A DNA stretch of 59,726 nucleotides from a bacterium (GTDB lineage: Bacteria; Patescibacteriota; Microgenomatia; Levybacterales; UBA12049), in assembly GCA_021780675.1 (NCBI GenBank), contig JAJXYH010000045.1, positions 1 through 59,726 on the forward strand, read 5' to 3'. The notes beneath the pieces were generated by a model. The model searched no databases. It was not told where the DNA came from and saw only the letters and a list, made by a program, of their open reading frames with translations. This document shows positions 36,945 to 56,823 of the stretch, one piece after another; within the stretch, counting starts at the first letter, position 1, and every line of letters starts with the position of its first letter. Position numbers and translations under genes: made by a program.

Positions 36945-37496
36945 ATGGAACAAACATTAGTCATATTAAAGCCGGATGCAGTAAAAAGAAATTTGATGGG
37001 TGAAATTATCACCAGATTTGAAAAAGTAGGCCTAAAATTGGCTGCAGTAAAGCTTGTTACTGCTAAAAAAGAGATTGTAGATAAGCATTATCCAAAAGAC
37101 AGAGATGAACTTTGGTTTGGAATTGGCAACAAAACACTAGAAAACTACGAAAATTTAGGTATGGACCCAATAGAAAGTCTTGGAACCTCGGATCCAAGAG
37201 AAATCGGTAAAATGGTCAGAGTGTGGCTTATGGATTACATAATGCAGGGACCTGTTTTAGTAATGGTTTTAGAGGCGCCACACGCGGTAGAGTTGGTTAG
37301 AAAATTAGCGGGGCATACCTTGCCTTTGCTTGCCGCACCAGGAACAATAAGAGGGGATTACGCTTACGATTCATCTTATCTTGCAAACAGTAACAAAAGA
37401 GCAATCGAAAACTTAGTACACGCATCAGGAACTGTTGAGGAAGCTAAATATGAAATACCACTTTGGTTTACTCCTTCGGAGATTCATTCTTACTAG
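36945..37496 (+). CDS. ndk: Nucleoside diphosphate kinase
   Basis: TLVILKPDAVKR, PGTIRGD, NLVHAS catalytic His. Confidence 0.95.
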   Translation: MEQTLVILKPDAVKRNLMGEIITRFEKVGLKLAAVKLVTAKKEIVDKHYPKDRDELWFGIGNKTLENYENLGMDPIESLGTSDPREIGKMVRVWLMDYIMQGPVLVMVLEAPHAVELVRKLAGHTLPLLAAPGTIRGDYAYDSSYLANSNKRAIENLVHASGTVEEAKYEIPLWFTPSEIHSY

Positions 37497-37914
37497 TTGT
37501 TTTTCTGACTTTAAAATCTAAAAAGGCCAATATTAGTATTCCCGTAGAAATAGCCTCGCTTGTTAAGCAATATTGGCAAAAAGCATGTAAAATACCGGCT
37601 TGAATATATAATAATACGAGCGAAACCAAAAAACCGATCATCGAAAGACCATAAAAAAGGTAGGTAAATAGTTTTTTATAATTTGTCAAAATAAGAACGC
37701 AAAGCAAAACCACTCCTAAATAAAACAGACTTCCAAGCAATGCAACAGGTACGGGACCGATTTTAGAATAAGCACTGGTTAAAACTGTTTCACACCCGCC
37801 GGTTACGCTGCAGGGAGGTATTATATGTCTAAAATCTAAGATGGTAAGGTAAGTAGCCAAGAAAAAACCTAAAAATCCTAAAACTAAAGAACTAATCACC
37901 AGTTTGTTTTTCAT
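37468..37914 (-). CDS. Vitamin K epoxide reductase (VKOR) family protein (start probably 37914)
   Basis: CSVTGGCETVLTS loop cysteines and CQYC in TM. Confidence 0.93.
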   Translation of the reverse strand: MKNKLVISSLVLGFLGFFLATYLTILDFRHIIPPCSVTGGCETVLTSAYSKIGPVPVALLGSLFYLGVVLLCVLILTNYKKLFTYLFYGLSMIGFLVSLVLLYIQAGILHAFCQYCLTSEAISTGILILAFLDFKVRKTTSKNESPKE

Positions 37915-37918
37915 AAAA

Positions 37919-38677
37919 TTACTGTTTAGGCGTTGGAGTAGCGGCTTGTTTAATCGCTTCGTCAATTAATTTTTGGAATTCTTCAATACTTGAAGGATTA
38001 TTAATTTCCTTTCCGTTTATAAAGAATGTTGGAGTATGGTCTAAACCTTCGCTTAAAGCCTGCTGTTCGGAATCGTTTACGTACTTTACTGCCTCCTGGG
38101 ATGTCATATCTTTATTAAATTGGGTAACGTTTAGTTTTAGCTTCTTGGCGTATTCTAAAAATACAGGTTTTGGGTCCTGTAAATTTGCCCAGTCGTTTTG
38201 ATTGTTATAGAGTAAATCATCGTAATTAAAAAATGCACCCTGTTTATTAGCTGCATAGGCTGCCTGTGCGCTGATGTGAGAATTAGGATGAATGTTGGTT
38301 AGTGGGAAGAATCTGTAAACATACAGCATTTGATTTTTGTATTTATCTACCAGTTGGGTAATTAGAGGGTGGTAGGCGGCGCATGCCGGGCATTCAAAGT
38401 CCGCCCATTCGGTTAAGGTTACTTTTGGATTTTTAGCTCCTTCGGAAATATCTTTAGAAGTTGTGGGCGCTGTTGTTAGTGATCCGGCTTGTGGGGCAGC
38501 AGGTTGGCTAACCAGCCACATAAGACCTCCGACTGCAAAAATAATTACTGCTACGACTGATGCCCAAATGGAGTATTTCTTAATAGTTTCGTTCTTTTTT
38601 TCCGACTTTGCTTTTTCTTCCCACTCGAGTTTTCGGAGGGCTTTTTTCTCGTCTTTTGTAAGTTTTCCTTCCGTCAT
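37919..38677 (-). CDS. Membrane-anchored DsbA/BdbD-like thiol-disulfide oxidoreductase (start probably 38677)
   Basis: DFECPAC, FFPL..IHPNS, TPTFFING; N-terminal TM. Confidence 0.93.
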   Translation of the reverse strand: MTEGKLTKDEKKALRKLEWEEKAKSEKKNETIKKYSIWASVVAVIIFAVGGLMWLVSQPAAPQAGSLTTAPTTSKDISEGAKNPKVTLTEWADFECPACAAYHPLITQLVDKYKNQMLYVYRFFPLTNIHPNSHISAQAAYAANKQGAFFNYDDLLYNNQNDWANLQDPKPVFLEYAKKLKLNVTQFNKDMTSQEAVKYVNDSEQQALSEGLDHTPTFFINGKEINNPSSIEEFQKLIDEAIKQAATPTPKQ

Positions 38678-38720
38678 TTTTATATGTTCGCACTTCAGCG
38701 AAAATTTTTCAAGTAGTAAT

Positions 38721-39482
38721 TTATTTAGGCTCTGCAAATACCAATAACCTCTGGAATGTAGTGCCGGGCGGCCAGCAGGTTTGCAAAATTAACTGTTCTT
38801 TATTTTGATTTTTAGCGTTTACAATATAGGAAACGTCCGACGGGTCAACAATTTTAGAACCCGTCATTATATAGTTATGTCTCTTGCCCTGGAAAAAAAT
38901 AACAATTTCATCACCCTTTTGTAAGTCTTTAAGCAGATAAAATACTGCGTTGTAGCGCCCGACGTCCCAGAAGTTGTCGGTTGAGTGGGCAAAAAGATAT
39001 ATATTTCCTTTCATGCCAGGGAAAACCGTTCCTTTGGCGTGTGCAACGCCTTTTTGTAGAATTGGCAGGAAATCGTTCGGATTTGAAGGGTCTACATTAG
39101 GGTAAATTTTTGCATTTGCCCCGATTGCAGGAATTAAAATACTAAAATTAGTGTCAACAGGTGTTAAGACTTGCTCTTTGGGTCCGGTTAAAACCGCAGC
39201 AAAATTATCTATACCGCTTGATTGCTGGGGAACGGGTGTTGGTATTGGTGTTGGGGTGTACTGTGGAGGCGGTTGACCGGGAATAAGTGTTGGAGTGATT
39301 AAAGGAGCCGCGTGCGCTGTAGCAACAATATATCTGACACCTCTTGCGTTAGCAACATGAAGCGCAAGTTCATAATAAAGCGCCGGACCAAAGGTTGCCA
39401 AAATACCAAAGATTGCAAAAAGTACTAAAAAATTACCAATGGTTCTTAAGACTAAAAATCGGAGGATTTCAGATTTATTCAC
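38721..39482 (-). CDS. Sortase
   Basis: Catalytic triad pattern FAHS, LQTCWPPG, RLLV; N-terminal TM; GVAH..GT. Confidence 0.92.
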   Translation of the reverse strand: MNKSEILRFLVLRTIGNFLVLFAIFGILATFGPALYYELALHVANARGVRYIVATAHAAPLITPTLIPGQPPPQYTPTPIPTPVPQQSSGIDNFAAVLTGPKEQVLTPVDTNFSILIPAIGANAKIYPNVDPSNPNDFLPILQKGVAHAKGTVFPGMKGNIYLFAHSTDNFWDVGRYNAVFYLLKDLQKGDEIVIFFQGKRHNYIMTGSKIVDPSDVSYIVNAKNQNKEQLILQTCWPPGTTFQRLLVFAEPK

Positions 39483-44094: not shown

Positions 44095-44967
44095 ATGGAC
44101 TATAAATTTATTGAAAATGAGATTTCTAAAAAATGGGTTATATCGTCTCCCAGACGAGCTAAAAGAAATAAGAGCGAAGACTCAAAAACTGCGGTGTGTC
44201 CTTTTTGTACCGGCAATGAGAATATGGACGAAGAGACCTATAGAATTGGTAGCAAAGAGGATATATCCGGTTGGAAAGTTAGGGTTATTAGCAATAAATT
44301 TCCTTTTGCGCCAATCCATGAAGTAGTTATACATTCTCCGGATCATCATAAGAATTTTGACGAATTACCACTAGAGCAAAACCTACTTGTTCTACAAACT
44401 TTTAGACAGCGTTTTGAGACCTACCAGGACAAAGGACAGGTGTGTATTTTTCATAATCACGGTAAGGCAGCAGGGGAGAGTCAGCCCCATCCGCATAGTC
44501 AAATTGCGGTAATTCCCGACTTTGTAAAGTTAGAGATACCAAGGCTAATTACAGCGGACAGTAAGGACGGTTTGGAGACCGAGCACTTTGTAATTTATGT
44601 GCCTGATTCTAGTGAATGGCCGGATGAAGTATGGTTAAGGCCAAGGCAAGTGAGGGAATATTTTAGTATGACTTCGGATGAAGAATTAAATGACCTTGCT
44701 CGTATTTTATATAGATTGATACAGATATTTGACTTAAGACATGGTCATGAGTTTCCATTCAACTTTTATATTTCTCCCCATAAAGATTGGTACTTACGCT
44801 TAATTCCACGCCTAAAAACAGTTGGAGGTTTTGAGCTTGGGACAAATGTTTGGGTAAATACACAAGATACAAGAGAGACAATGGCATTTATAAAAGAACA
44901 TTTTGAAAGTCCGGATGAAGAAAAAATCCGCAGGGTACACCAGGCGCAGTACCACAGGGCAGTATAA
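44095..44967 (+). CDS. Galactose-1-phosphate uridylyltransferase-like HIT protein (start probably 44095)
   Basis: RRAKR, CPFC, VISNKFP, HNHGKAAGES..HPHSQ. Confidence 0.85.
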   Translation: MDYKFIENEISKKWVISSPRRAKRNKSEDSKTAVCPFCTGNENMDEETYRIGSKEDISGWKVRVISNKFPFAPIHEVVIHSPDHHKNFDELPLEQNLLVLQTFRQRFETYQDKGQVCIFHNHGKAAGESQPHPHSQIAVIPDFVKLEIPRLITADSKDGLETEHFVIYVPDSSEWPDEVWLRPRQVREYFSMTSDEELNDLARILYRLIQIFDLRHGHEFPFNFYISPHKDWYLRLIPRLKTVGGFELGTNVWVNTQDTRETMAFIKEHFESPDEEKIRRVHQAQYHRAV

Positions 44968-44983
44968 TTTGAAGATGTAAGAG

Positions 44984-45910
44984 TTAAGATTTAGCAGGAT
45001 ACCTTTTAAATTTCTTTCTATATAATACTACTAGCGCTGCAAGCAAGACAATCAACCCAAGAGTTTTTATAAAGTCCATTCCTCCCATGGAAAAGAACTT
45101 GATGCTTTGCGATAGCTTTTGATTGGTTTTACCAAAATGTATGCTTAGCTTGGCTGTATACGTGCCGGGGATAAGTACCTTCTGGTAAGTCGTTGAAGTA
45201 ATAGTATAACTTCTAATGCTTTCGGGAAGTGCATCCAGCGAATTTTCGTTAACTATCCCTTTTGCCACCAGGTTTCCAAACGGGTCGTAAACTATAACCG
45301 TGCCGTAGGGAATAACGTGTACATTGCCGCTGTTTTGAAATCTTAGCAAAAACGAGTCGGGGTAGTCGTAGTTGTCTCTTAGCGGTTCAAACGAAAATAT
45401 TTTTCCATCTTCTACTTCTTTTCCGGTTGATGCCCTTACAAACAAAAGACTCGAGAGTACCGCTTTGATGCCAATATTTTGAGAGCTGGCCTGTTGGGCG
45501 ATTTCTGCCAAAATGCTGGCGTAGTGTCCGCCTTTGGTTATCCTGTTTTTATCTATATAAATTTTCACGGACTTTTTTTCGTGTGGAGCAAGTTCTAAGG
45601 TTTTAGTTTCGAATGAAATCCAAGAGGACAGTGAGTATTTATAATTTTGCGCCTTGGGCGCGTCCAAAAACTCCAGCTTATAACTGTCTTCAAGTTCCGT
45701 AAAGTCTTTGGCGCTTAAGGTTATGGTAATGTCTGTATCGAAATTATTTACATATGTTAATTCGTACTCCGGCGGATCAACTGCAAGGTCGATGTGGGCA
45801 ATTGAAGGGGTCACAGACACGCCTTTTGAAGTAGTTTGGGCATCTACGGCATGAGTAAGTAACAAGGCTAAAAAGAGACTAATAACAAGGCTAAAAACAA
45901 GTTTTTTCAT
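44984..45910 (-). CDS. DUF916/DUF3324-like (WxL-interacting type) membrane-anchored protein, copy 2
   Basis: Signal peptide, VSVTPS, GGHYASI, FQNSGNVHVIPYG, PGTYTAKL, C-terminal TM + RKKFK. Confidence 0.65.
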   Translation of the reverse strand: MKKLVFSLVISLFLALLLTHAVDAQTTSKGVSVTPSIAHIDLAVDPPEYELTYVNNFDTDITITLSAKDFTELEDSYKLEFLDAPKAQNYKYSLSSWISFETKTLELAPHEKKSVKIYIDKNRITKGGHYASILAEIAQQASSQNIGIKAVLSSLLFVRASTGKEVEDGKIFSFEPLRDNYDYPDSFLLRFQNSGNVHVIPYGTVIVYDPFGNLVAKGIVNENSLDALPESIRSYTITSTTYQKVLIPGTYTAKLSIHFGKTNQKLSQSIKFFSMGGMDFIKTLGLIVLLAALVVLYRKKFKRYPAKS

Positions 45911-45947
45911 CCTACCTCATAATAGCATAATTTGATATCATAACCCT

Positions 45948-46538
45948 ATGAGAAAGTTTGTTATACTTATTTTGGCAATATTTATAGTTATAACTTCAAT
46001 TATTGCTTACTTTATGTTAACAGCGCCTCCCAAACAGATGTCGGAGGCCGAAAAAGAAGCCAAACTTGTCCAAATTTTAGGCAGGAAGCCGAATTTAACC
46101 GATACAACTCCCAAAGGAGGTACCCTTTATAAAGGGAAGTATGTAAGTTTTACGTATCCTGCAGCTGGTAAAATTTATACTTATAAAGATCCCAGTTTAA
46201 GGCAGGATACATCGGTACTGGAAACTTTTTCTTTTGATATCCAAAACCCAAGGCTTACCTTAAATTATTCGACGATTGACAGGTCTAACCTTTCGGGCTT
46301 AGAAGATATTCCGGATGTTAAGCTTAGACAACTTCCTTCAAGTGGTTATATTCAACAAGATGTTACAGCAGACGGTGTAAATGGCCTTTCTTTTGAAAAA
46401 CAAGATCAACAAATTGAAATGACAGCCTTTTTCTTTAAAAATAATAAGCAATATTCGATTTCTATAACCGGAATTAACAATAAAGATGTAGAAAAGTTGT
46501 TTTATGAGGTAATTTCCAGCCTTAAGTTTACTCCTTAA
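45948..46538 (+). CDS. Membrane-anchored protein, PsbP/DcrB-like fold suspected
   Basis: N-terminal TM; YVSFTYP, VTADGVNGLSF, NKQYSISITG pattern. Confidence 0.55.
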   Translation: MRKFVILILAIFIVITSIIAYFMLTAPPKQMSEAEKEAKLVQILGRKPNLTDTTPKGGTLYKGKYVSFTYPAAGKIYTYKDPSLRQDTSVLETFSFDIQNPRLTLNYSTIDRSNLSGLEDIPDVKLRQLPSSGYIQQDVTADGVNGLSFEKQDQQIEMTAFFFKNNKQYSISITGINNKDVEKLFYEVISSLKFTP

Positions 46539-47583
46539 GCTTTTTCTTGACTTCGCGGTTAATGTAGGATTTTAATAAGTATCTGATCACTAGTACAAGT
46601 AAAATTATGACTATGGCGATTACAGCCAGCGCTTTGTAGGGAATTACCCAGAAATTTATGGATTTTTCTAAGGAAACGTCTTTTGTGCCGTCGTCGTATA
46701 CAACAATCAGGTCTGCTGTGTACTTTCCAACGCGGAAACTGGTCAATTTATTCCAGTTGATCTGCAAAGTTTTGACTTGCTTGCCGTTTTTATCAAGCTT
46801 GGGTTGTCCGTTTTCCATTACCGGAACATATACTAAAAAGCCGTCGCTCCAGCTAACATCAAAAATTCGTTTGGTCGAAGGAATAATGTTTCCTGAACCC
46901 GGATTAAAGTCGATTGCAGCAATATTTTTATTGGTCCCGCTTGAAATAAAGATATTTCCATGGGGTAAGATATGCACGTTTCCGGAATTTTGTAGTACTA
47001 CTTTAAAGTCAACAGGTAAATATTCGCTAACATAGTTTGAGGTGGAAAAATCAACTATTTTAGCCTCTGCTTTTGCCCCGGCTTTTCTTACGTCAAGTAG
47101 TACTGGAATTGCTGCAGCTCCTGTTATTGCAGTGCCGGTTGTTTTAAGCGATGATCCTGTGTCTTGGGTAAAGGAAATTGCAAAGTAGTATCCATAAGCG
47201 GCGTCTTTAGGAATAGTAATAGTAAAAGGAATATCTGTCCATTCCAGTGGTTTTGCAACAAAAGTATTGCTTTCAAACTTAAACCAAGTGAGTGAATTAT
47301 CACTGGATGTGTCTTTTAATGTTAAATCTCCGTTTGCATCGCCGGTCATTTTTTTAACCTCAAGCTTTATAGGAAGCGGGGAAGTAGTATTATTCCTTAT
47401 CCTTATTTTGGTGTTAATCGTATCTCCCGGGTTTGCAGAAAGGTCTAAAAATACAGGAGAAACCGTAACGTCGTAATTAGCCGGAGTTGGAGATTGGGCA
47501 AAAGAGGTTTTTAAAACAATGAAAAGACCACCTAAACTTAGGATGAAAATGAGCAGTGCTAATCGTTTTTTCCCATATTTCAT
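46528..47583 (-). CDS. DUF916/DUF3324-like (WxL-interacting type) membrane-anchored protein, copy 1
   Basis: VTVSPVFLDLSANPG, AAYGYYFAI, LQNSGNVHILPHG, VGKYTADL, C-terminal TM + basic tail. Confidence 0.7.
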   Translation of the reverse strand: MKYGKKRLALLIFILSLGGLFIVLKTSFAQSPTPANYDVTVSPVFLDLSANPGDTINTKIRIRNNTTSPLPIKLEVKKMTGDANGDLTLKDTSSDNSLTWFKFESNTFVAKPLEWTDIPFTITIPKDAAYGYYFAISFTQDTGSSLKTTGTAITGAAAIPVLLDVRKAGAKAEAKIVDFSTSNYVSEYLPVDFKVVLQNSGNVHILPHGNIFISSGTNKNIAAIDFNPGSGNIIPSTKRIFDVSWSDGFLVYVPVMENGQPKLDKNGKQVKTLQINWNKLTSFRVGKYTADLIVVYDDGTKDVSLEKSINFWVIPYKALAVIAIVIILLVLVIRYLLKSYINREVKKKLKE

Positions 47584-47584
47584 A

Positions 47585-48652
47585 TCAGAACGATCCTGCG
47601 GCAGTAATTGTTAGTGTATCTGAATAGTCATTTGCAGCTGTTTGAGTGGCTGGGATTTTAGCTCTTGCATTAATTGTTACAGTGTCTCCGGCTGTTGGCG
47701 CAGTATTTGATGCCATTTGCTGGAATAAGGTTGTACTTACTCCTCCGGAGGTTGTATTAGTTCCGTTATACGCCGTTGCAATAGTTGGTGCTCCTGTTCC
47801 CGAATCGGCATCAATAACATAACCGGTGGTTGTTGCAAGGTCGTATACAGTTCCATAAGTCCCTGTTGGTACAGAAATATCAGCATTAGCTACTGTTGAA
47901 TGTAGTGCACCGAGCGTTGTTGTTCCTTGAGCTCCTTTTATCCAGGAGACCCAACCGTTTCTGGCGTTTGTACCAACTGTTTCGGTAACATTCCCCGATG
48001 AAACAGTGCTGGTTGAAAGTGTGCCGAGGGCAATAGAATTACCACTTAAGGAAAATGTCATAGTTGCTGAGACAGAGGCTGATACCGTAACTTGTTCTCC
48101 GCCTGAGGAAACGATTGATGCAGCCCAATTTAGCTGATCTGTGTATGGTGCGCCACCCAATGTTTCAAGCTCTCCATTTTGATTATTTCCCGCAGGACCA
48201 ATAGTTGAGGATGCTCCTGTAAAATTAAAGCAATAAAAATTACCTGCTACAAACGATGTTGTTGGGAAGGTTACAGAAAGTCCATTGACGCTGGTTGCGG
48301 TACCGATTCCCGGCCAGGCTGTTGCAGCTCCACCTCCAGAAGGGTCTGTTGGTAAGTTAGTAGTCGTAGTTGTCCAGTTGGATGCTGTACTGGAAATGAT
48401 CCAGCCTTGAGGAAATACGATAGTTGTTGCAGTTTGGGTGGTTAATGTGGATTTAAGACAAGCTGTACCGGAAATAGCTTGTCCAGTTGAAAGTCTGTCT
48501 AGTCTTACAAAGCCCTCCGTTACGGTCGCGTTAGCTAATTGTGGTTGAAGTAAAGGGTAGAGAACTAAAAGCAAAAGTGAAATATTTAAAACAACGCTCA
48601 ATAGAACTCTGGGATTTTTTAAATTATTTACTTTAATTTTGGGAAATTTCAT
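47585..48652 (-). CDS. Secreted Thr-rich protein with C-terminal WxL-like domain (small)
   Basis: Signal peptide; TNARNGW; ends ANDYSDTLTITAAGSF. Confidence 0.7.
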   Translation of the reverse strand: MKFPKIKVNNLKNPRVLLSVVLNISLLLLVLYPLLQPQLANATVTEGFVRLDRLSTGQAISGTACLKSTLTTQTATTIVFPQGWIISSTASNWTTTTTNLPTDPSGGGAATAWPGIGTATSVNGLSVTFPTTSFVAGNFYCFNFTGASSTIGPAGNNQNGELETLGGAPYTDQLNWAASIVSSGGEQVTVSASVSATMTFSLSGNSIALGTLSTSTVSSGNVTETVGTNARNGWVSWIKGAQGTTTLGALHSTVANADISVPTGTYGTVYDLATTTGYVIDADSGTGAPTIATAYNGTNTTSGGVSTTLFQQMASNTAPTAGDTVTINARAKIPATQTAANDYSDTLTITAAGSF

Positions 48653-48749
48653 TTTTTACTGCTGTATTTAGCAAACCATTTTTTTGATAGTTTGTCAAGT
48701 ATTACTTAAAGCTTAGAGTAATATTAAATAAAATTTTCATAAAGTGCAG

Positions 48750-50357
48750 CTAGAAGCTACCTGTGGCTATTAGCGAAATAAGATCAGTATAGTCTCCTGC
48801 AGTCGGCGTGGTTGAAGAAGCTTTTGCTTTTAGTTCAAAAGAAGCCTGCCCACCTGTAACAGGAGTGTTGCTGGAATCAGACAAAGTGCGTTTACTTGTA
48901 TCAATAACTCCGACATTATTGCCCGTTCCGGCATATGGTGTATCAAACACCATAGGTCCGCCCGAAGTTTGAGTGGTACTTGTTCCCTGCAAGCCATAAC
49001 CTTCTGAAATGGTTGATAAATCATTAGTTGTGCTATTAATAGTATAGTTTCCGGCACTGATACTTTTTAGACCATTGTTAGATCCGTAAATGTAAATTAA
49101 GCCACCGTTTACAGCGTTAGTGGTAATATTGGTGGTAACTTTATCGGAAGACGTACTTATAGAACCTGGAGTTAAACTTCCTAAATTTATATTAAAAGGT
49201 GGAGTAGATTGACTGGTTGTCTGGACACTAAAAATAAGTGTAGGGTTTGTAGTTGCAGAATTTGCACTTTGACTCCAGAATCCCTGTTGATAAGCACCCG
49301 TTCTTGCCGCCACCCGTGCGTAATAGGTTGTTCCACCGGTTAAACCGATTATGTCAAATCCGGTAGTGCTTCCCCAAAGTGTATAGTTTTGAAAAACAGG
49401 TTTTGTGCCTAATGTATCATCAGCTTGAACGAAATATATGTTTGTACTAAAAGTAGGGTCGGTGGAAACTTGAATTACATATGTGGCATCAGTTGGATTT
49501 GCACCGTTATCGATTACGATATGTAGTTTATTATAGTATCCGGATGGATTAGTAAATATAGGGGCGAGTGGCGTATTTGGTTCAAGAGTATAGGTAAGGC
49601 CAGGAAGAGTTAAGTAATTGGTTGAAGATAGTGAGGCTGTTTCTATTTCGCCTAAAATACCTTGAAACATATAATTTGTTGAGCTTGAGCTGGCGCTTCC
49701 ACCCGCACCAAATCCAAAGTCCAACAATTGGTAATTTGTGCTTACGGGATTAGCTGGAGTTGGTGTCGGTGATGGTGACGGGGTTGGTGTAGGAGCCGGC
49801 GTATAGGTTAAATCGGTTTGACTAGCGGTAACCATTGCAGCTGTACCTCCACCCCCACCCGTTGACCCAAGAGTTGCTACATATTTTATTCTTAAAGCGT
49901 CAATTTGAGTTTTGGTTAGGGAAAGCCCATTCGCAGAAAAAGTATGGTCTGTTAAAGTGCCATTAACTAAATTTACCGTACTCCCAATTTGAACAGTTGG
50001 GTCGGTGCCATCAGTAGAATAATAAACGTCTAAAGTACCGCTTCTTCCCCCTGTTTTATCGGCGCGTACTGTAATTGTCATTGCCGTTACGGTTTGGACA
50101 TCAGCAGGACTTGCTGTGTTGGTATAAACATAAGTTGCGGTCACACCGTTTGGGGTTTGAATATAATTTGTGTCGTTTGGCGAAGTAGTTCCCTCGCTTA
50201 TGCAGCTATATAGATTAGTAGTGCACGTACCTGATGTCCAGTTGGTTGTGGTAATATCTCCGTTTGCATAAATAGTTCCGGAAGCTGCGAACGCTATACC
50301 TCTGAATAAAATTAGAAATATTGCGATATATATTGATATATTACTAAATCTTTTCAT
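48750..50357 (-). CDS. Secreted multidomain protein (PT linker, FN3-like, C-terminal WxL-like domain; large)
   Basis: Signal peptide, PTPTPSPSPTP linker, GLTGGTTYYARVAA FN3-like strand, TNAVNGG, ends AGDYTDLISLIATGSF. Confidence 0.7.
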   Translation of the reverse strand: MKRFSNISIYIAIFLILFRGIAFAASGTIYANGDITTTNWTSGTCTTNLYSCISEGTTSPNDTNYIQTPNGVTATYVYTNTASPADVQTVTAMTITVRADKTGGRSGTLDVYYSTDGTDPTVQIGSTVNLVNGTLTDHTFSANGLSLTKTQIDALRIKYVATLGSTGGGGGTAAMVTASQTDLTYTPAPTPTPSPSPTPTPANPVSTNYQLLDFGFGAGGSASSSSTNYMFQGILGEIETASLSSTNYLTLPGLTYTLEPNTPLAPIFTNPSGYYNKLHIVIDNGANPTDATYVIQVSTDPTFSTNIYFVQADDTLGTKPVFQNYTLWGSTTGFDIIGLTGGTTYYARVAARTGAYQQGFWSQSANSATTNPTLIFSVQTTSQSTPPFNINLGSLTPGSISTSSDKVTTNITTNAVNGGLIYIYGSNNGLKSISAGNYTINSTTNDLSTISEGYGLQGTSTTQTSGGPMVFDTPYAGTGNNVGVIDTSKRTLSDSSNTPVTGGQASFELKAKASSTTPTAGDYTDLISLIATGSF

Positions 50358-50374
50358 ATTAATTTATCTACTTT

Positions 50375-50794
50375 TTAAAGTGGTAAGTAGAAAACACTTT
50401 GCCCAAATAATGTATGTAAGTAATCGTATGTATGAATTTGCGTAATTCCTTTTTTGTTTGCCAAAACCGCTCTTAAACTTTGTGAAAAAGTAAGATCGGT
50501 TGATTTGTAATTAATTAGCGTCTTTAATGCAGCCTTAATGTCACGTTCTTCTGGATAAATAATATTTATGTCCGAAATTGAGACTATTCTTAGAAAGTCT
50601 TTTGCAAGAGATGGGCTAATTTCACTATAAATTTGATTATAAACTTCCAAAAGGGTATAGATATCGGTAAAAAGAGAGTATTTTTCTAAGGCAAAATACC
50701 TAAAATAAGCAGAAGATTGTTCATATTTTTGATGCGCACGATTAACAAAGGCATAAAATGCACTTCCTGAGATGTAGACTTTTTTACTTATCAT
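50375..50794 (-). CDS. VapC-like PIN-domain protein with degenerate active site
   Basis: VYISGSAFYAF, TLLEV, TFSQS, HTYD correspond to VapC DTSAFYAL, E, SFTD, TFD. Confidence 0.72.
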   Translation of the reverse strand: MISKKVYISGSAFYAFVNRAHQKYEQSSAYFRYFALEKYSLFTDIYTLLEVYNQIYSEISPSLAKDFLRIVSISDINIIYPEERDIKAALKTLINYKSTDLTFSQSLRAVLANKKGITQIHTYDYLHTLFGQSVFYLPL

Positions 50795-50878
50795 AAGAAA
50801 TGTTTAACTGCTAAAGTGTATAAAATATCAAATTATGCCGTATTGTCAAGCTAAATTAAAAAATCTACAAAGATTATT

Positions 50879-51160
50879 TTAGCTTGACAAGATAAGACTT
50901 GCGCCCCGGCCTTTTAGTCTGAATAATGGATCATCAAGGGTAAAGGTTTTGGAAGGTTTTAGGCTGTTTTTAAGCACATTTACTTTTTTTGTTTCGTTGC
51001 TAAAGTCCTTATTGAAATCAGTTAAGCTTGATTCTTTAATCCTAATATTTCCACCAGCCTTAATTGCTTTAAGACGTCCCTCTTTTATATAACGACGAAT
51101 TGTTAGGGGGTGTACTTTTAAAATAAATGCAACTTGATTAACGTTAAATAAATTATCCAT
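50879..51160 (-). CDS. Excisionase/MerR-type HTH DNA-binding protein with antitoxin-like tail
   Basis: FNVNQVAFILKVHPLTIRRYIKEGRLKAIK.GGNIRI; C-terminal DDPLFRLKG. Confidence 0.85.
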   Translation of the reverse strand: MDNLFNVNQVAFILKVHPLTIRRYIKEGRLKAIKAGGNIRIKESSLTDFNKDFSNETKKVNVLKNSLKPSKTFTLDDPLFRLKGRGASLILSS

Positions 51161-51178
51161 ATTTTAATAATTTTTTAG

Positions 51179-51332
51179 TTTTCAATTTTTAATTGAAAAT
51201 TTTAAGACCCCAAAAATTTTAAATTGGTTTATATAATTATATACATTATTATGCAATAATATGCAAGTTTATTATATTTTTGACCCATAGCTTTAAAATC
51301 GGTTAAATTAATATTACCTACGGTAATATTAA
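51179..51332. promoter_or_regulatory. Divergent promoter region with three palindromes
   Basis: TTTTCAATT-3-AATTGAAAA (51179-51199), TATATAATTATATA (51230-51243), TTAATATTACC-3-GGTAATATTAA (51308-51332). Confidence 0.55.
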
Positions 51333-53579
51333 ATGCTTGAGCTTAACCTTAAAAAACTTGGATTTTTCACAAGGGTCTTTTTGGCCTTTACGTTAGCCTT
51401 AGTTATATTTTCCCCTTTACTCGTGAAAAATGCAAGTGCGGCAGCCGGGATTAATAGAGTAATAAATTTTCAGGGAAAATTAGTTAATAATCCTTCTGCA
51501 ACAAACGTATCTAATTCGCCCTACACGGTAGTTTTTTCACTTTACGATCAAGCAAGTGGGGGAACTGTATTGTGGTCGGAAACTCAAACTGTAATCACAG
51601 CAGACGGAATTTTTAGGGTAGCGTTAGGTTCGGTTACACCTTTTCCGGCAAATTTTAATTTTAACTGGTCCGGGCTTTATTTAGGCATAAAAGTAGGTTC
51701 GGATTCGGAAATGACACCAAGAATTCAATTGGCATCTGTTCCATATGCGTTTAATGCACAGCAAGTTGCAGGGTTAACAGTTCAGGACGACAGCGGAAAT
51801 GCTTCTACATCGGGAACGCTTCAGGTTGGAAATTCTAAAATCGTAACTTTTAAAGGCTCAAGCGGTTTAACGTTTAATGACCCAGGTGCTTCGGTTACCA
51901 TAAGTTTTCCGACTACAGGAACGCTTACTTTAGTGGATACTTCAACTTCGCAAACTTTAACCGGAAAAACAATCGGAACAGGCGGGTTAACTTTTAATAC
52001 TACGGGAACGGACATTACAACAACTGCTAATCAAAATTTTATAGTTTCTCCAAACGGAACCGGGCTTATCGGTTTTAATACGAATTCACCTTTATCAAGC
52101 ATAGACCTACAAGGAAACCCGGTGACTGGGGGGACGCTGTCCATCGCCTCAGTCTCCGGGCAGACTTCATTTGCTGCGTTTGTAATTGACAATAGTGGAA
52201 GCGGTGATTTATTTACTGCTTCATCTTCCGGAGAAACTAAATTTAATATTGCAAGAAATGGCAATATTACTCTAACCGGAGCGGTTTTGATTAGTGGTTC
52301 AAATGGAAGCGGACAATGTTTAACAGGTGGATCAGCGGTTAAATGGGGTACTTGCGGGGGCGCTCCGCCGGGGGGTTATCCGTTTTTTAATGCGGGGGGA
52401 TACATCATTCAAAATATCACCACTGAAGATTTATTGCTTGGTGGAAACTCTACTTCTACGGCTAAATTTGCCTTTACCGGTCTTGATACGAATCAGACAC
52501 AAGCTTCTTTTTCCGGACAATTTAATTTAATGCCAAATAATGGTTACGGGGGCAATGCATCTATTTCTGCGGGAATGGTTTTGGGGGCGATGATAGGGCC
52601 GGTTATTCAAACTACAGACAATAAGGCTATTATAATCGGAGGAAATACAACCGGAAATATTAATTTTAGTCCTAATAATACTCCAACGATTAATTTATCG
52701 CCAAATACATTGACTTTTGTTGGGGCCGGCATTAGTCAGATTAATACATTAAATAATCAACATTTGTCCATTAATCCCGGTGGAGGTGGTTTTTTGGGAA
52801 TAAATACCGACGGTATAACACCTGTTGCAAACGTTGATATTAGGGGAGATGTCGGGACAATTGCGGTAGCTTCAGTTTCTGGCAAGACCAGCTATGCTTC
52901 ATTAGTTGCAAATAATGATGGGGTGGGAGATATTTTTACAGCCAGCGCCAGCGGCTGGACAAGGTTTACAATCTCAAATTCAGGAAAAGTGACAATAGGT
53001 ACAAGTACTAATGGTTTGACTTTTGATCCTGCAAGCGGTCCAAATTACAACGGGTCCGCACAACCTTTAAAAACAATTATATTATCACCCGAATATGCAG
53101 GGGCAACACTAACTGCTTCGGGCTCGGCAACAACAAATGGTAATATGACCGCCGACGCTTCGCCGTCGGCCAACTTTAGAACTTATTATCAGTGGTCTAC
53201 AACACAAAGCTCAATGCAGGATTATACCGTGGTTGTTAGGGTTACACTTCCAAATGATTTTTCCTCTTGGGATAGTGCCAATGCAATGACAATAGACTTA
53301 GATACCGCAACAACAAATGCGACGCAAAACAAGTTAGATATCCTTGTCTATAATCCAACTTCAAGTACGAGCACGCCGGTTTTAATGCGAACGGCAAATA
53401 CCAGTACATCCGGATATAACTGGAGAACAATTGCAATAACTTCATCTGCATTTACGGGGGGGGCGGCAAAGTGGCAGACGTCAGGTCAAACAGCAGTTAT
53501 TTATTTAAAAATGTATGCTGCCAGCCCTGGCGTAACACAAATCGGAGATATTGTTTTAAATTATTATGCTAAATTCTAA
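51333..53579 (+). CDS. Secreted tail-fibre-like/adhesin protein (748 aa)
   Basis: Signal peptide; INFQGKL...EMTPRIQLASVPYAFNA N-domain; two ASVSG.TS.A...G.GD.FTAS.SG.T.F repeats. Confidence 0.7.
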   Translation: MLELNLKKLGFFTRVFLAFTLALVIFSPLLVKNASAAAGINRVINFQGKLVNNPSATNVSNSPYTVVFSLYDQASGGTVLWSETQTVITADGIFRVALGSVTPFPANFNFNWSGLYLGIKVGSDSEMTPRIQLASVPYAFNAQQVAGLTVQDDSGNASTSGTLQVGNSKIVTFKGSSGLTFNDPGASVTISFPTTGTLTLVDTSTSQTLTGKTIGTGGLTFNTTGTDITTTANQNFIVSPNGTGLIGFNTNSPLSSIDLQGNPVTGGTLSIASVSGQTSFAAFVIDNSGSGDLFTASSSGETKFNIARNGNITLTGAVLISGSNGSGQCLTGGSAVKWGTCGGAPPGGYPFFNAGGYIIQNITTEDLLLGGNSTSTAKFAFTGLDTNQTQASFSGQFNLMPNNGYGGNASISAGMVLGAMIGPVIQTTDNKAIIIGGNTTGNINFSPNNTPTINLSPNTLTFVGAGISQINTLNNQHLSINPGGGGFLGINTDGITPVANVDIRGDVGTIAVASVSGKTSYASLVANNDGVGDIFTASASGWTRFTISNSGKVTIGTSTNGLTFDPASGPNYNGSAQPLKTIILSPEYAGATLTASGSATTNGNMTADASPSANFRTYYQWSTTQSSMQDYTVVVRVTLPNDFSSWDSANAMTIDLDTATTNATQNKLDILVYNPTSSTSTPVLMRTANTSTSGYNWRTIAITSSAFTGGAAKWQTSGQTAVIYLKMYAASPGVTQIGDIVLNYYAKF

Positions 53580-56500
53580 ATTAAAGAAAAAAGTTTTTAT
53601 TTATTTAACAATCTTAAGTTTGTTGCTAAGTTATTCGCCGGTTGGTGTTTATGCTCAAAGTGCAACCAGCTCGTCACATTTAAGCGCAACAGGAACTGAA
53701 GTAAATATTGCATCAGACGCAAGTGCTTCTGGTTCTTTACAAAACAATAATTTCGATGCAAATTATGTTAATTCAACCTTCGTCCCATCTGCAAGCTTTT
53801 CGGGTCCTGATGTTAATTCATTATCTCCCAACTTTGACGCCCCGTCGAATAATCAGCAGCTTTCAACTACGAATAATAGCAATAAGAATTGGACTATTAA
53901 TTCAAAGAAAAATAATTTACAGGCAGACGAAGATTATCAGGTAAATTTGGATAATATTTCTCCTCAAGATGTTAGTGTGCAAATTTACGATCAAAATGGC
54001 AATTTAGTTAATTCAAATTTTAATAAAATTGCAACATCAAACGGAACTTCAATTGATATATCTCCTCCGAGTGCTTTTCGTCCCGGGAAATATACAGTTA
54101 AGATTACCGATACAAGCGGAAACGTTAAACAACAGGACTTTACCTGGGGAGTTTTGGCAATAAATACCGACAAATCAATCTATTTACCAAACGAAACTGC
54201 AAATTTAGCCATGGCGGTTTTAGATAATACCGGAGATATGGTATGTGATGCAAATGTTACCTTAACTATTACCGATCCAAACGGAAAACAAACAGTTCTT
54301 TCAACTTCGGACAATTCAATTATTGTAAATCCTTCATGTCATTTGCATAATTTCACATTAATTCCGGATTACCAAGCGTCTTTTACGGTCGGGGGAGTAG
54401 GAGCTTATCAAATGGACCTTTTGGCCGAAACTACAGACGGTACAAGACAGATTAGTGATTCATTTCAGGTTCAAAATTCAGTAGCTTTTGATATAACAAG
54501 GCAAACCGCGACCAGGATTTATCCTCCCTCGGAATATCCGGTTAACCTAACCGTAAAATTTAATCAGGATTTTAACGGTCAAATTATCGATTATGTTCCT
54601 AATGATTTTAATATATTGCCGTCAAGTAGTTCGGCAGCACCAACATTTGATGTTAAAGAAATTGCAACGCCGGTTAAAAATCAAGATGGAAATTTACAAA
54701 GCTTAAAATTATTACTTCCGTTTAAAGGAACTGTTGATGAAACTTTGGGGTTTGGACAGCATCTTTTGGATCCTAAAGAGCGTGATTATTATGCCCAATA
54801 TGGTTTGGCGGGCCACGACGGATTAGATTTTGCCATGCCGATTGGAACTCCGGTTTATTCAACGGACGACGGAGTGGTAATAATGGCGGGCGGCGAAATT
54901 TATGGAACAACAGTTGTAATTCAACACGGTTGGGGAAGAAGTTACTATGGGCATTTAAGTAAAGTCGAAGTTACTGTTGGACAGAAAGTTTCAAAAGGCG
55001 ATGAAATTGCATTATCGGGAAATACCGGAATAACAACTGGGCCTCATTTGCATTTTGGCATAAAATTTAATCAAAACGATCCAAATAACGGATATTACGG
55101 AAAAACCGATCCTAGTCCTTACCTTGGATTAACACCACAAAATCAAACCGTTGCAACCAACATCAATAACACTGTTAAAGCAATTGTTTGGACAGTTAAT
55201 GCAAGAGCGGGGGACACGCTAAATCTTTCTTATAATTTTAAAATGCCAATGATTAGTCCGATGTTTTACACCATTGGACCCTTGAGTTTTGTTTCCAATA
55301 ATCAAGTAGTTTTTCAGGAAGTACGTAAGTGGCAGTTGGCAGCAGATGCGGCAACAGTAATAATTATTACTTCTTCTTATACCGATCCTTGTGGTAGTAA
55401 TTGTTGGACTGTTCCGTCTGATTGGAATATTACAGGCAGTACTATTGAAGCTGTTGGCGCCGGTGGCGGTGGGGGAAGTGGAACAGCCGGTACAAATACT
55501 GCCGGAAGAGGCGGCGGAGGCGGCGGGGGCGGCGGAGAGTATCGCAAAATTAGTAGTTTTACGACAACTCCGGGAAGCGTAATTCCATTTTCTATTGGAA
55601 TCGGTGGCACAGGAGGTAACGGTGGAAACGGTACTGCAGGAACTGTAACCACTTTTAATACCACCAGTCTTGTAGCAAACGGCGGCGGATTTGGTGGTTG
55701 GAGTAATAGTACTGCGGGTGGTTCGGCAGGTGCAGGCGGAACCGGCGGAACAGGTGCGGCAGCAAACTTTAACGGCGGTGCAGGCGGAGTAGGTGGAGCA
55801 GCTTCGGGAAGTAACGGAGGCGGCGGTGCAGGCGGCGGAGGAGCCGGTGGTACAACTGCTGTTGGTGGAACTGCCGCGAACGTTGGAACTTCAACTACGG
55901 GAACAAATGGAGGCGCAGGAGGAGCAACCAGCGGCGGTTCGGCAGGGACACAACCGGGCGGAACGGGTGGCAATGGAACGGTTTGGACTGATACGACTAC
56001 TTTAGCAACTGGTGGTGCAGGCGGCGGAGGCGGCGGCGGAACAGGAGGAATAAGTGCGGCCGGAACAATTGGCGGAACCGGCGGTAATTATGGCGCAGGC
56101 GGTGCTGGCGGCGGCGGAGGAGGAAAAAAAGGCGCGCTTGGAATGGGAGGAAACGGAATAAATGGAGTAATTGTAATTACTTATACTTCGGTTGCCAATA
56201 CAACGCAGTATGCTTACAGATTCAGAAGCGATGATGGCAATGAAACAACCGGAACATCCTTAGTAGCGCAAAATACGGCAATAACGGGTTTGGCCTTATC
56301 GACAAATATAAGATTAAGGTTTTTAGTTTATAATTCCGGCGGTTCTGCAGCCAGCGCTCAAACTTTCAGGCTGGATTATGCGCCGCTTTCAGGAAGCTGT
56401 TCAACTTCTACATTTGCACCAATCCCAACATCTTCTGGTACAGACCCTTTTTATATGACTACCACTTCTTATTACATTAATGGAACCGCGTCAACTAATG

Positions 56501-56823
56501 TTTCAACCGGACCTGCGGTAATTGCAGATCCAAGCGGAGGAACTTTTATTGCAGGCACTTTGGTTTCGGCTACTTCCAATACCTCGGCCTCGATAATTTT
56601 AACAAGTAAAGGTTTTACTGAAGTTGAGTATAACTTTGCGGCAAACTCAAACGCTGTTGGTGGAAATACATATTGTTTTAGGGTTAGTAATTCAGGTACG
56701 CCGATTAATACATACTCTCAATATGCCCAGGCAACAGTTGCTGGTGGCGGACCGGCAGTGTATCAGTTATTAAGACATGGAGAATGGTTCAGTAACGGAA
56801 TAAGACAACCGTTTACGTTCTAG
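53566..56823 (+). CDS. Giant secreted protein with internal M23 peptidase and glycine-rich domain (1085 aa)
   Basis: Signal peptide; GHDGLD, YYGHL, TGPHLHFG; long GGGGG-rich region; ends LLRHGEWFSNGIRQPFTF. Confidence 0.85.
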   Translation: MLNSKLKKKVFIYLTILSLLLSYSPVGVYAQSATSSSHLSATGTEVNIASDASASGSLQNNNFDANYVNSTFVPSASFSGPDVNSLSPNFDAPSNNQQLSTTNNSNKNWTINSKKNNLQADEDYQVNLDNISPQDVSVQIYDQNGNLVNSNFNKIATSNGTSIDISPPSAFRPGKYTVKITDTSGNVKQQDFTWGVLAINTDKSIYLPNETANLAMAVLDNTGDMVCDANVTLTITDPNGKQTVLSTSDNSIIVNPSCHLHNFTLIPDYQASFTVGGVGAYQMDLLAETTDGTRQISDSFQVQNSVAFDITRQTATRIYPPSEYPVNLTVKFNQDFNGQIIDYVPNDFNILPSSSSAAPTFDVKEIATPVKNQDGNLQSLKLLLPFKGTVDETLGFGQHLLDPKERDYYAQYGLAGHDGLDFAMPIGTPVYSTDDGVVIMAGGEIYGTTVVIQHGWGRSYYGHLSKVEVTVGQKVSKGDEIALSGNTGITTGPHLHFGIKFNQNDPNNGYYGKTDPSPYLGLTPQNQTVATNINNTVKAIVWTVNARAGDTLNLSYNFKMPMISPMFYTIGPLSFVSNNQVVFQEVRKWQLAADAATVIIITSSYTDPCGSNCWTVPSDWNITGSTIEAVGAGGGGGSGTAGTNTAGRGGGGGGGGGEYRKISSFTTTPGSVIPFSIGIGGTGGNGGNGTAGTVTTFNTTSLVANGGGFGGWSNSTAGGSAGAGGTGGTGAAANFNGGAGGVGGAASGSNGGGGAGGGGAGGTTAVGGTAANVGTSTTGTNGGAGGATSGGSAGTQPGGTGGNGTVWTDTTTLATGGAGGGGGGGTGGISAAGTIGGTGGNYGAGGAGGGGGGKKGALGMGGNGINGVIVITYTSVANTTQYAYRFRSDDGNETTGTSLVAQNTAITGLALSTNIRLRFLVYNSGGSAASAQTFRLDYAPLSGSCSTSTFAPIPTSSGTDPFYMTTTSYYINGTASTNVSTGPAVIADPSGGTFIAGTLVSATSNTSASIILTSKGFTEVEYNFAANSNAVGGNTYCFRVSNSGTPINTYSQYAQATVAGGGPAVYQLLRHGEWFSNGIRQPFTF

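Follow-up and report, generated by a model that had tools for sequence, protein, structure and literature searches.

A Levybacteria gene cluster that very probably encodes a Pam-type donor-strand pilus with chaperones of the DUF916 family

What kind of surface structure is encoded by five open reading frames (ORFs) at positions 44984-50357 of a Levybacteria contig (JAJXYH010000045.1, assembly GCA_021780675.1), the whole 59,726-nucleotide stretch of which is the window analyzed here? Four of these ORFs lie on the minus strand and one lies among them on the plus strand, all as reported in a preliminary description of the locus. That description read the cluster as a divergent relative of the WxL/csc surface complexes of Firmicutes, in which a large and a small secreted protein with a common C-terminal domain would polymerize through their terminal strand into a sortase-independent fiber tethered by two DUF916/DUF3324-like membrane proteins, with a PsbP-like protein encoded alongside. 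Our analysis indicates that the cluster is very probably the Levybacteria (class Microgenomatia) form of the Pam pilus of the candidate phyla radiation (CPR), polymerizing by donor-strand exchange of an inter-domain linker, and that the two membrane proteins are more plausibly chaperones tethered to the membrane than tethers of the fiber.

The Pam pilus is known from two Candidatus Mycosynbacter amalyticus filaments solved by cryo-electron microscopy (cryo-EM) (Troman et al., bioRxiv 2026, PMC13278184; NCBIfam NF058581). PamA and PamB, both with reported disulfides, are pilins with an N- and a C-terminal domain, and the strand that joins the two is inserted as donor into the open immunoglobulin (Ig)-like C-domain of the following subunit. 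The chaperones PamC and PamD resemble PapD/FimC and carry a C-terminal transmembrane (TM) helix, and PamT is a tip subunit that consists of the C-domain only (PMC13278184). Homologs have been reported from Saccharimonadia and Microgenomatia, together with a tail-fiber-like neighbor gene (PMC13278184). The single NCBIfam match obtained here was that of the secreted 355-amino acid (aa) protein (47585-48652, minus strand), which we read as the major, or shaft, pilin of PamB type and which aligned with NF058581 ('CPR_Pam_pilin_C') over positions 2-148 of 148. Although this match falls below the curated cut-off of the family, the pilin carries the Pam C-domain at the profile level, because hhalign comparison of 28 C-domains from above-cut-off Pam pilins with 61 C-domains of the window's family was significant (98.1%, E 1.4e-13) across 153 columns, end to end. 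In addition, BLASTP aligned the 355-aa protein with a PamB-type pilin (2e-8), and an aromatic C-terminus is common to the two sets of C-domains, the bona fide Pam end being ...TLTY.ATA.[FY]-COOH. Relatives of the pilin at 54-79% identity number in the hundreds, every one an unnamed protein from Patescibacteria. Across 401 sampled genomes of the phylum, NF058581 found matches in 118, with 33 above its cut-off, and we conclude that this model under-detects the system in Microgenomatia, such that its spread in the CPR has been underestimated.

The two secreted proteins of the cluster are related to one another as first described. The 535-aa protein (48750-50357, minus strand) and the 355-aa pilin can be aligned across their final ~180 residues (BLASTP E 2e-8, 30% identity) and both end in GSF, and the terminal run is near-invariant in 33 pilin orthologs, far beyond chance. 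A C-domain scan of the genome, which is 98% complete, found only two Pam C-domain proteins, and searches of the same genome found no usher (PF00577). None of the chaperone scans returned a match to PF00345 (PapD_N).

The membrane proteins also tie the cluster to Pam. Chaperone 1, of PamC/D type and the DUF916 family (351 aa, 46528-47583, minus strand), and chaperone 2 (308 aa, 44984-45910, minus strand) are paralogous (BLASTP E 8e-11), and each begins with a signal peptide and carries a TM helix at its C-terminus, as judged from sequence and AlphaFold2 (AF2) modeling. A homolog of the 351-aa protein adjoins the ~365-aa pilin gene in 15 bona fide Pam operons, usually just 3' of it (HMMER E 1e-15 to 1e-41). 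The 22 chaperones of these operons aligned with the 351-aa family over the full length, including an FWVxP motif and the TM helix (hhalign 100%, E 9.7e-45), and with chaperone 2 (99.9%, E 2.9e-31). Chaperone 1 consists of a signal peptide, a beta-sandwich at residues 39-165, a second at 174-313 with an insertion of ~31 residues, a TM helix at 316-338 and a basic tail, and its AF2 model (pLDDT 76) shows two beta-sandwiches and a TM helix. The top Foldseek matches of this model were the Enterococcus faecium WxLIP structures 9i1y/9i25 (E 4.5e-12), followed by the chaperones CsuC, CfaA, EcpB and FimC.

These matches lead to a second pilus system. WxL clusters were recently reported to build donor-strand pili in which the DUF916/DUF3324 protein is the membrane-anchored chaperone, and the system was described as confined to Bacillota (Sleutel et al., bioRxiv Oct 2026, 10.64898/2026.10.17.759780). 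The DUF916 part of the preliminary description holds for the proteins of this cluster: WxLIP is the top fold match, and PF06030 (DUF916) was matched at E<=0.01 by 34 of 34 orthologs of the 351-aa protein (best 2.4e-9), one of which is annotated as DUF916 by NCBI. The window's own two copies give sub-threshold matches (8e-5 and 0.016), with the 351-aa protein scoring 23.1 bits against a cut-off of 27.3. The DUF3324 part was not recovered by hidden Markov model (HMM), since PF11797 had no match in the window proteins, the orthologs or the Pam-operon chaperones, but a profile alignment of the 351-aa family with six ElrE-type chaperones taken from Firmicute WxL loci spans the second domain as well as the TM helix (hhalign E 6.9e-9, 275 columns). 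When the 351-aa family was compared with ElrE or a Shouchella WxLIP as single sequences, hhalign gave weak values (E 1e-3 to 1e-4), and significance required the six-sequence profile. Bona fide Pam-operon chaperones aligned with the same six proteins at E 4.8e-12, and 14 of the 22 matched PF06030. In chaperone 1, the hairpin that ends domain 1 (residues 128-165, AAYGYYFAISF...GTAITGAAAIPVLLDV; 47089-47202, minus strand) has columns that are invariant in orthologs and aligns in the profile comparison with the hairpin by which ElrE complements the groove of the pilin, the residue numbering of the latter hairpin being ambiguous in the source. The DUF916/WxLIP family thus takes in the chaperones of Pam pili, those of bona fide Saccharimonadia-type operons among them, and this joins the CPR pilus to the Gram-positive WxL pilus.

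The same association is visible across the phylum. PF06030 was found in 149 of the 401 sampled Patescibacteria genomes (92 above Pfam's cut-off); 81 genomes had both DUF916 and the Pam C-domain, 37 had the C-domain without DUF916, 68 the reverse, and 215 lacked both, which corresponds to an odds ratio for co-occurrence of 6.9, not corrected for phylogeny. The DUF916 proteins of the 68 genomes with no detectable Pam C-domain (families f35 and f62) are often 400-570 aa long, and they may serve a further, undescribed type of pilin.

The relationship to WxL does not extend measurably to the pilins. The preliminary description took them for divergent WxL proteins, but the WxL domain (PF13731) was matched by none of 33 pilin orthologs and by no protein in the genome, and hhalign of Pam C-domains against WxL alignments of 11 and 18 sequences gave collinear but non-significant results (E 0.06-0.51). 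Neither the Pfam search of the 33 members nor these two tests identified the pilin C-domain as a WxL domain. Likenesses between pilin and WxL motifs (TNARNGW and DxRG..GWxL; DYxDTLT and YxxTxTWTL) are anecdotal.

Which segment of the pilin is donated? The 355-aa protein comprises a signal peptide (residues 1-42, cleavage after ANA), an N-terminal beta-sandwich (43-185), a linker (186-200) and the C-terminal domain (201-355). In the 33 orthologs, the N-domain contains an invariant Cys65/Cys141 pair, in keeping with the disulfides that PamA and PamB are reported to have, and there is little or no variation in either SVSAxMxFxL (residues 191-202) or DYxDxLxxxAAGSF-COOH. Conservation by 10-residue blocks peaks at 141-150, at 191-200 in the linker (0.87) and at the tail, 351-355 (1.0). 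Within the linker EQVTVSASVSATMTF (48053-48097, minus strand), A192, S193, V194, A196, M198 and F200 are invariant, and side chains alternate such that small or hydrophobic residues recur at A192, V194, A196, M198 and F200. The AF2 monomer model (pLDDT 83) places the domains at 46-181 and 198-353 and leaves residues 185-195 (pLDDT <50) as its sole disordered stretch. Because Pam filaments donate their linker, and because the linker here is conserved like the tail and disordered in the monomer model, we regard it as the probable donated strand. The invariant C-terminal strand NDYSDTLTITAAGSF-COOH (47588-47632, minus strand) would then probably be the groove-edge (F) strand, that is, the last strand of the acceptor domain, pairing with donor and chaperone strands; in WxL and chaperone-usher pili, both of these strands pair with the C-terminal one (10.64898/2026.10.17.759780).

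The 535-aa protein appears to end this fiber. It starts with a signal peptide (residues 1-24), a payload domain with two Cys (25-185; 49803-50285, minus strand) and a Pro/Thr-rich linker (186-205), and continues with three SxNY repeats (206-250), an fn3-like domain (~260-365) and the Pam C-terminal acceptor domain (366-535; 48753-49262, minus strand; E 1.4e-58 against the family HMM), which ends in GSF. The contrast between a large and a small secreted protein is not a conserved feature of the cluster: in 23 of 25 orthologs the 'large' protein is just ~340-400 aa, homology begins at window residue ~202, and the N-terminal ~200 residues are a lineage-specific addition absent from those 23. The N-terminal extension varies among orthologs, in which the triple SxNY motif forms the mature N-terminus. 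The SxNY block matches the ~250-aa C-domain-only proteins of PamT type that open Saccharimonadia-type Pam operons (E 2e-10 and weaker), and the inter-domain linker of the 535-aa protein is poorly conserved (0.29-0.42). As compared to PamT, it has an extra fn3-like domain and a segment of linker length. The SxNY motif of PamT type, the variable payload and the poorly conserved linker together suggest that the protein is the tip subunit, of PamT type, extended by a payload domain. The payload domain matched no Pfam family and gave a very weak galactose-binding-like match (E 0.15); we infer that it is a distal adhesin module.

At the other end of the fiber, a 910-aa polytopic membrane protein encoded on another contig of the assembly (C40:10708-13440, plus strand) is a candidate base. 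Its signal peptide precedes an N-domain like that of the pilin and the linker core QVSVTAVV, beyond which come Ig-like domains, a stretch rich in Ser/Thr, several TM helices and a CarboxypepD_reg domain. The protein matches the pilin HMM over positions 20-196 (E 5e-31). The linker core QV[ST]V[ST]AxV is thus kept, whereas the Pam C-domain and the GSF tail are absent. Because the donor strand is present and the acceptor domain is not, this protein could both terminate the fiber and anchor it. A relative in the same family (46% identity) is encoded ~10 kb from the pilin gene, and in one more distant genome a relative adjoins the pilin gene.

Homology with the solved PamA/PamB filaments, together with the roles proposed above, suggests the following assembly route. 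After Sec export, a strand of the membrane-tethered chaperone would first complete the open C-terminal Ig-like domain of each subunit. The linker of the 355-aa pilin (about residues 186-200) would then displace the chaperone strand in the previous subunit's groove, pairing there with the invariant C-terminal ...AAGSF strand, and repetition of this step would polymerize the fiber, with the 535-aa protein at the tip, the 355-aa protein in the shaft and the 910-aa protein at the base. A sortase-independent donor-strand fiber, as the preliminary description had foreseen, is the most likely product, because the cluster is homologous to the Pam pilus solved by cryo-EM and WxL clusters themselves encode donor-strand pili. 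The fiber probably serves contact with a host cell.

The preliminary description had assigned the parts otherwise: the GSF strand itself would insert into the following subunit, and the pair of DUF916-like proteins would tether the fiber to the membrane. The tail is indeed the most conserved run of the pilin (identity 1.0) and is common to both secreted proteins, and the membrane proteins do carry TM anchors. However, the linker is the donated segment in the solved Pam filaments, the C-terminal strand lies on the acceptor side in WxL and chaperone-usher pili, and the linker of this pilin is equally conserved and forms the disordered segment of the monomer model. Moreover, the donor-only 910-aa protein keeps the linker without the tail, and the membrane proteins resemble chaperones by both fold and profile. 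Donation of the tail, and with it this arrangement as a whole, is therefore improbable. A complex of WxL/csc type that does not polymerize, in which secreted monomers are held on the surface by the DUF916 proteins, would be compatible with the DUF916 homology, which is real, and with a 2023 study in which DUF916/DUF3324 proteins bind WxL and link bacterial and host surfaces (PMC10599100). We consider this very improbable, since WxL clusters have since been shown to make donor-strand pili, the pilin C-domain is homologous to that of filament-forming Pam pilins, and the strongly conserved amphipathic linker would be without an obvious role in a monomer. Finally, FnBPA, SdrG, SdrD, SdrE and ClfA are among the top Foldseek matches of the pilin model, as would be expected of monomeric two-domain adhesins of the microbial surface components recognizing adhesive matrix molecules (MSCRAMM) type, whose C-terminal strand, once ligand is bound, latches onto the adjacent domain within that molecule (dock-lock-latch). 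The TM-scores of these matches are low (0.17-0.27), indicating that they reflect generic tandem Ig domains, the cluster has no LPxTG or wall anchor, the operon is shared with chaperone homologs, and the profile homology is to Pam pilins, making this the least probable of the alternatives.

Several observations nevertheless count against assignment of the cluster to the Pam system. The NF058581 score of the pilin is 24.8-27.7 bits, compared to a curated cut-off of 55, and just 6 of its 33 orthologs match at E<=0.01. The C-domain scan of the genome found no third pilin of PamE type. In Foldseek, the whole pilin model retrieved just generic two-Ig-domain matches with low TM-scores, and no Pam structure was found by fold or sequence in the copy of the PDB that was searched; PDB sequence searches with both pilins and with A1 and A2 profiles likewise returned noise only. 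Donor-strand exchange in this cluster is deduced from homology, the tip, shaft and base roles from conservation and domain content, and the gene for the proposed base lies on a different contig from the cluster.

Gene order around the Pam-like cluster was compared across 30 related CPR loci, obtained with one genome per species. The order was kept in all loci with sufficient flank and runs from an HTH protein and a 139-aa protein through the 'large' protein, the small pilin and the membrane protein to an opposite-strand 196-aa gene, with one to two copies of the small pilin and one to three of the membrane protein per locus. The conservation of the cluster, which the preliminary description had suggested checking across the CPR, is therefore upheld in these related loci, and the likeness of its gene order to that of Firmicute WxL/csc clusters was borne out by the Firmicute WxL loci that were retrieved. 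Where the titles of these genomes are informative, they read Candidatus Levybacteria, Levyibacteriota, Moraniibacteriota or 'Patescibacteria group'. Of the species-representative genomes with the cluster, most bear the title 'uncultured Gammaproteobacteria', 'Bdellovibrionales', 'Pseudomonadales' or 'Sulfuricella', and are evidently mislabeled third-party annotation (TPA) metagenome bins.

The plus-strand gene of the cluster encodes a 196-aa accessory protein (45948-46538) that has a PsbP-like domain and is anchored by an N-terminal TM segment. Its PsbP-like character, noted in the preliminary description, finds support in a single weak but full-length PF18933 match (E 0.005). The gene is present in about 22 loci and is a fixed member of the cluster; in most relatives it lies on the opposite strand between the chaperone genes, and in several directly after the last one. 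Here it is divergent from the chaperone 2 gene with a gap of only 37 bp (45910-45948) and overlaps the 3' end of the chaperone 1 gene convergently by 11 bp (46528-46538). A role as a hidden C-domain-only, PamT-like subunit was ruled out for this protein by hhalign against the Pam C-domain (E 0.18-0.54).

Upstream of the tip gene, and conserved 5' of it, the head of the operon encodes a 93-aa HTH_17 protein and the 139-aa protein (50375-51160, minus strand). The 139-aa protein, for which no Pfam family was matched, occurs in 15 related loci and the pair in 11, and the two may be regulators of the pilus genes. A promoter and terminator scan of 44800-51500 found sites to be no more numerous than in shuffled sequence. 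Next to the operon head, and transcribed divergently, is a gene for a secreted fiber-like protein of 748 aa (51333-53579, plus strand; Bdello_MAT_N match, 2e-5), which usually adjoins the cluster in related loci. Its 3' end is overlapped by 14 bp by the ORF of a secreted 1085-aa protein (53566-56823, plus strand) with MG2 and peptidase M23 domains (M23 9.9e-28) and Gly-rich repeats, and the two proteins look like a host-contact and wall-cutting pair beside the pilus operon. At ~6 kb from the cluster, VKOR, a DsbA-like thioredoxin and a sortase are encoded in a tight array (37468-39482, minus strand; Pfam E 5e-22, 2e-28 and 2e-21), a trio that bears on the invariant Cys65/Cys141 pair in the pilin N-domain. 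Nothing ties this sortase to the pilus genes, and inspection of the five cluster proteins found an LPxTG sorting signal at the C-terminus of none.

Two further groups of proteins with Pam-like C-domains were seen elsewhere in the phylum. Very long frames with a Pam C-domain occur in several genomes (G020, G139, G175, G197 and others), including frames of ~880 aa, nine copies in G197, and lengths up to 5528 and 6452 aa, which points to a family of modular subunits that carry payloads, comparable to the WxL tip adhesins. In Saccharimonadia-type Pam operons, opposite-strand genes encode 185-190-aa proteins with a Pam-like C-domain (L053:7654-8208 and L058:8539-9108, both minus strand), which end in ...GNYT(T/S)xxVYTAVPxxx, without an aromatic C-terminus, in a manner reminiscent of the WxL C-terminal motif.

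How does the Levybacteria cluster compare with known systems? Like the Pam pilus, it combines a homologous C-terminal acceptor domain with an aromatic end, a pilin of two domains joined by a conserved linker, a pair of paralogous chaperones that each carry a C-terminal TM helix, the gene order tip, pilin, chaperone, and a fiber-like neighbor gene, in a CPR host and without usher or sortase signal. It differs from Pam in having a single shaft pilin, with no PamA or PamE type, whose similarity falls below the curated NCBIfam cut-off, and a PamT-type subunit with an inserted fn3-like domain, to which a payload of ~160-180 aa and a Pro/Thr linker are added in this genome. The candidate for the base is here the 910-aa protein, which is polytopic and has the N-domain of a pilin, while Pam has the RbmA-like PamR, a type that was not searched for in this genome. 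The PsbP-like membrane protein is a fixed feature here, with no ATP synthase genes within 8 kb. With the WxL (Elr/csc) pilus of E. faecalis and other Bacilli, made of ElrC/ElrD pilins with the ElrE chaperone, the cluster shares a homologous membrane-anchored two-domain PF06030 chaperone, the order of large adhesin-type subunit, small pilin(s) and chaperone, a C-terminal acceptor domain and a monoderm setting. Unlike that pilus, it has pilins without significant WxL similarity, a donor that would be an internal linker following an extra N-terminal domain rather than an N-terminal extension, and neither an LPxTG base subunit nor a sortase step, and it belongs to the phylum Patescibacteria. The classical chaperone-usher pili (Pap, Fim, Csu, CFA/I) would have in common with it chaperone-primed donor-strand exchange on an incomplete Ig fold, and the fold of its chaperone is like that of CsuC, CfaA, EcpB and FimC; they differ in that the Levybacteria system has no usher, outer membrane or PapD_N match, a chaperone tethered to the membrane and a pilin of two domains.

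The kind of fiber is thus already known, the Pam pilus having been solved in 2026, but the link between Pam and WxL chaperones is absent from both preprints, neither of which mentions the other's system (PMC13278184; 10.64898/2026.10.17.759780). This lineage suggests a minimal architecture of payload tip, shaft and donor-only membrane base, which could inform how host-dependent bacteria attach. There is an even case to be made for a broader proposal, namely that the Pam pili of the CPR and the WxL pili of Bacillota are two branches of one old monoderm pilus family with a homologous DUF916 chaperone and donor-strand exchange. In that event the one-phylum limits currently drawn would be too narrow, and the Levybacteria machine would be a form of this family reduced to a payload-bearing tip, one shaft pilin and a donor-only polytopic base.

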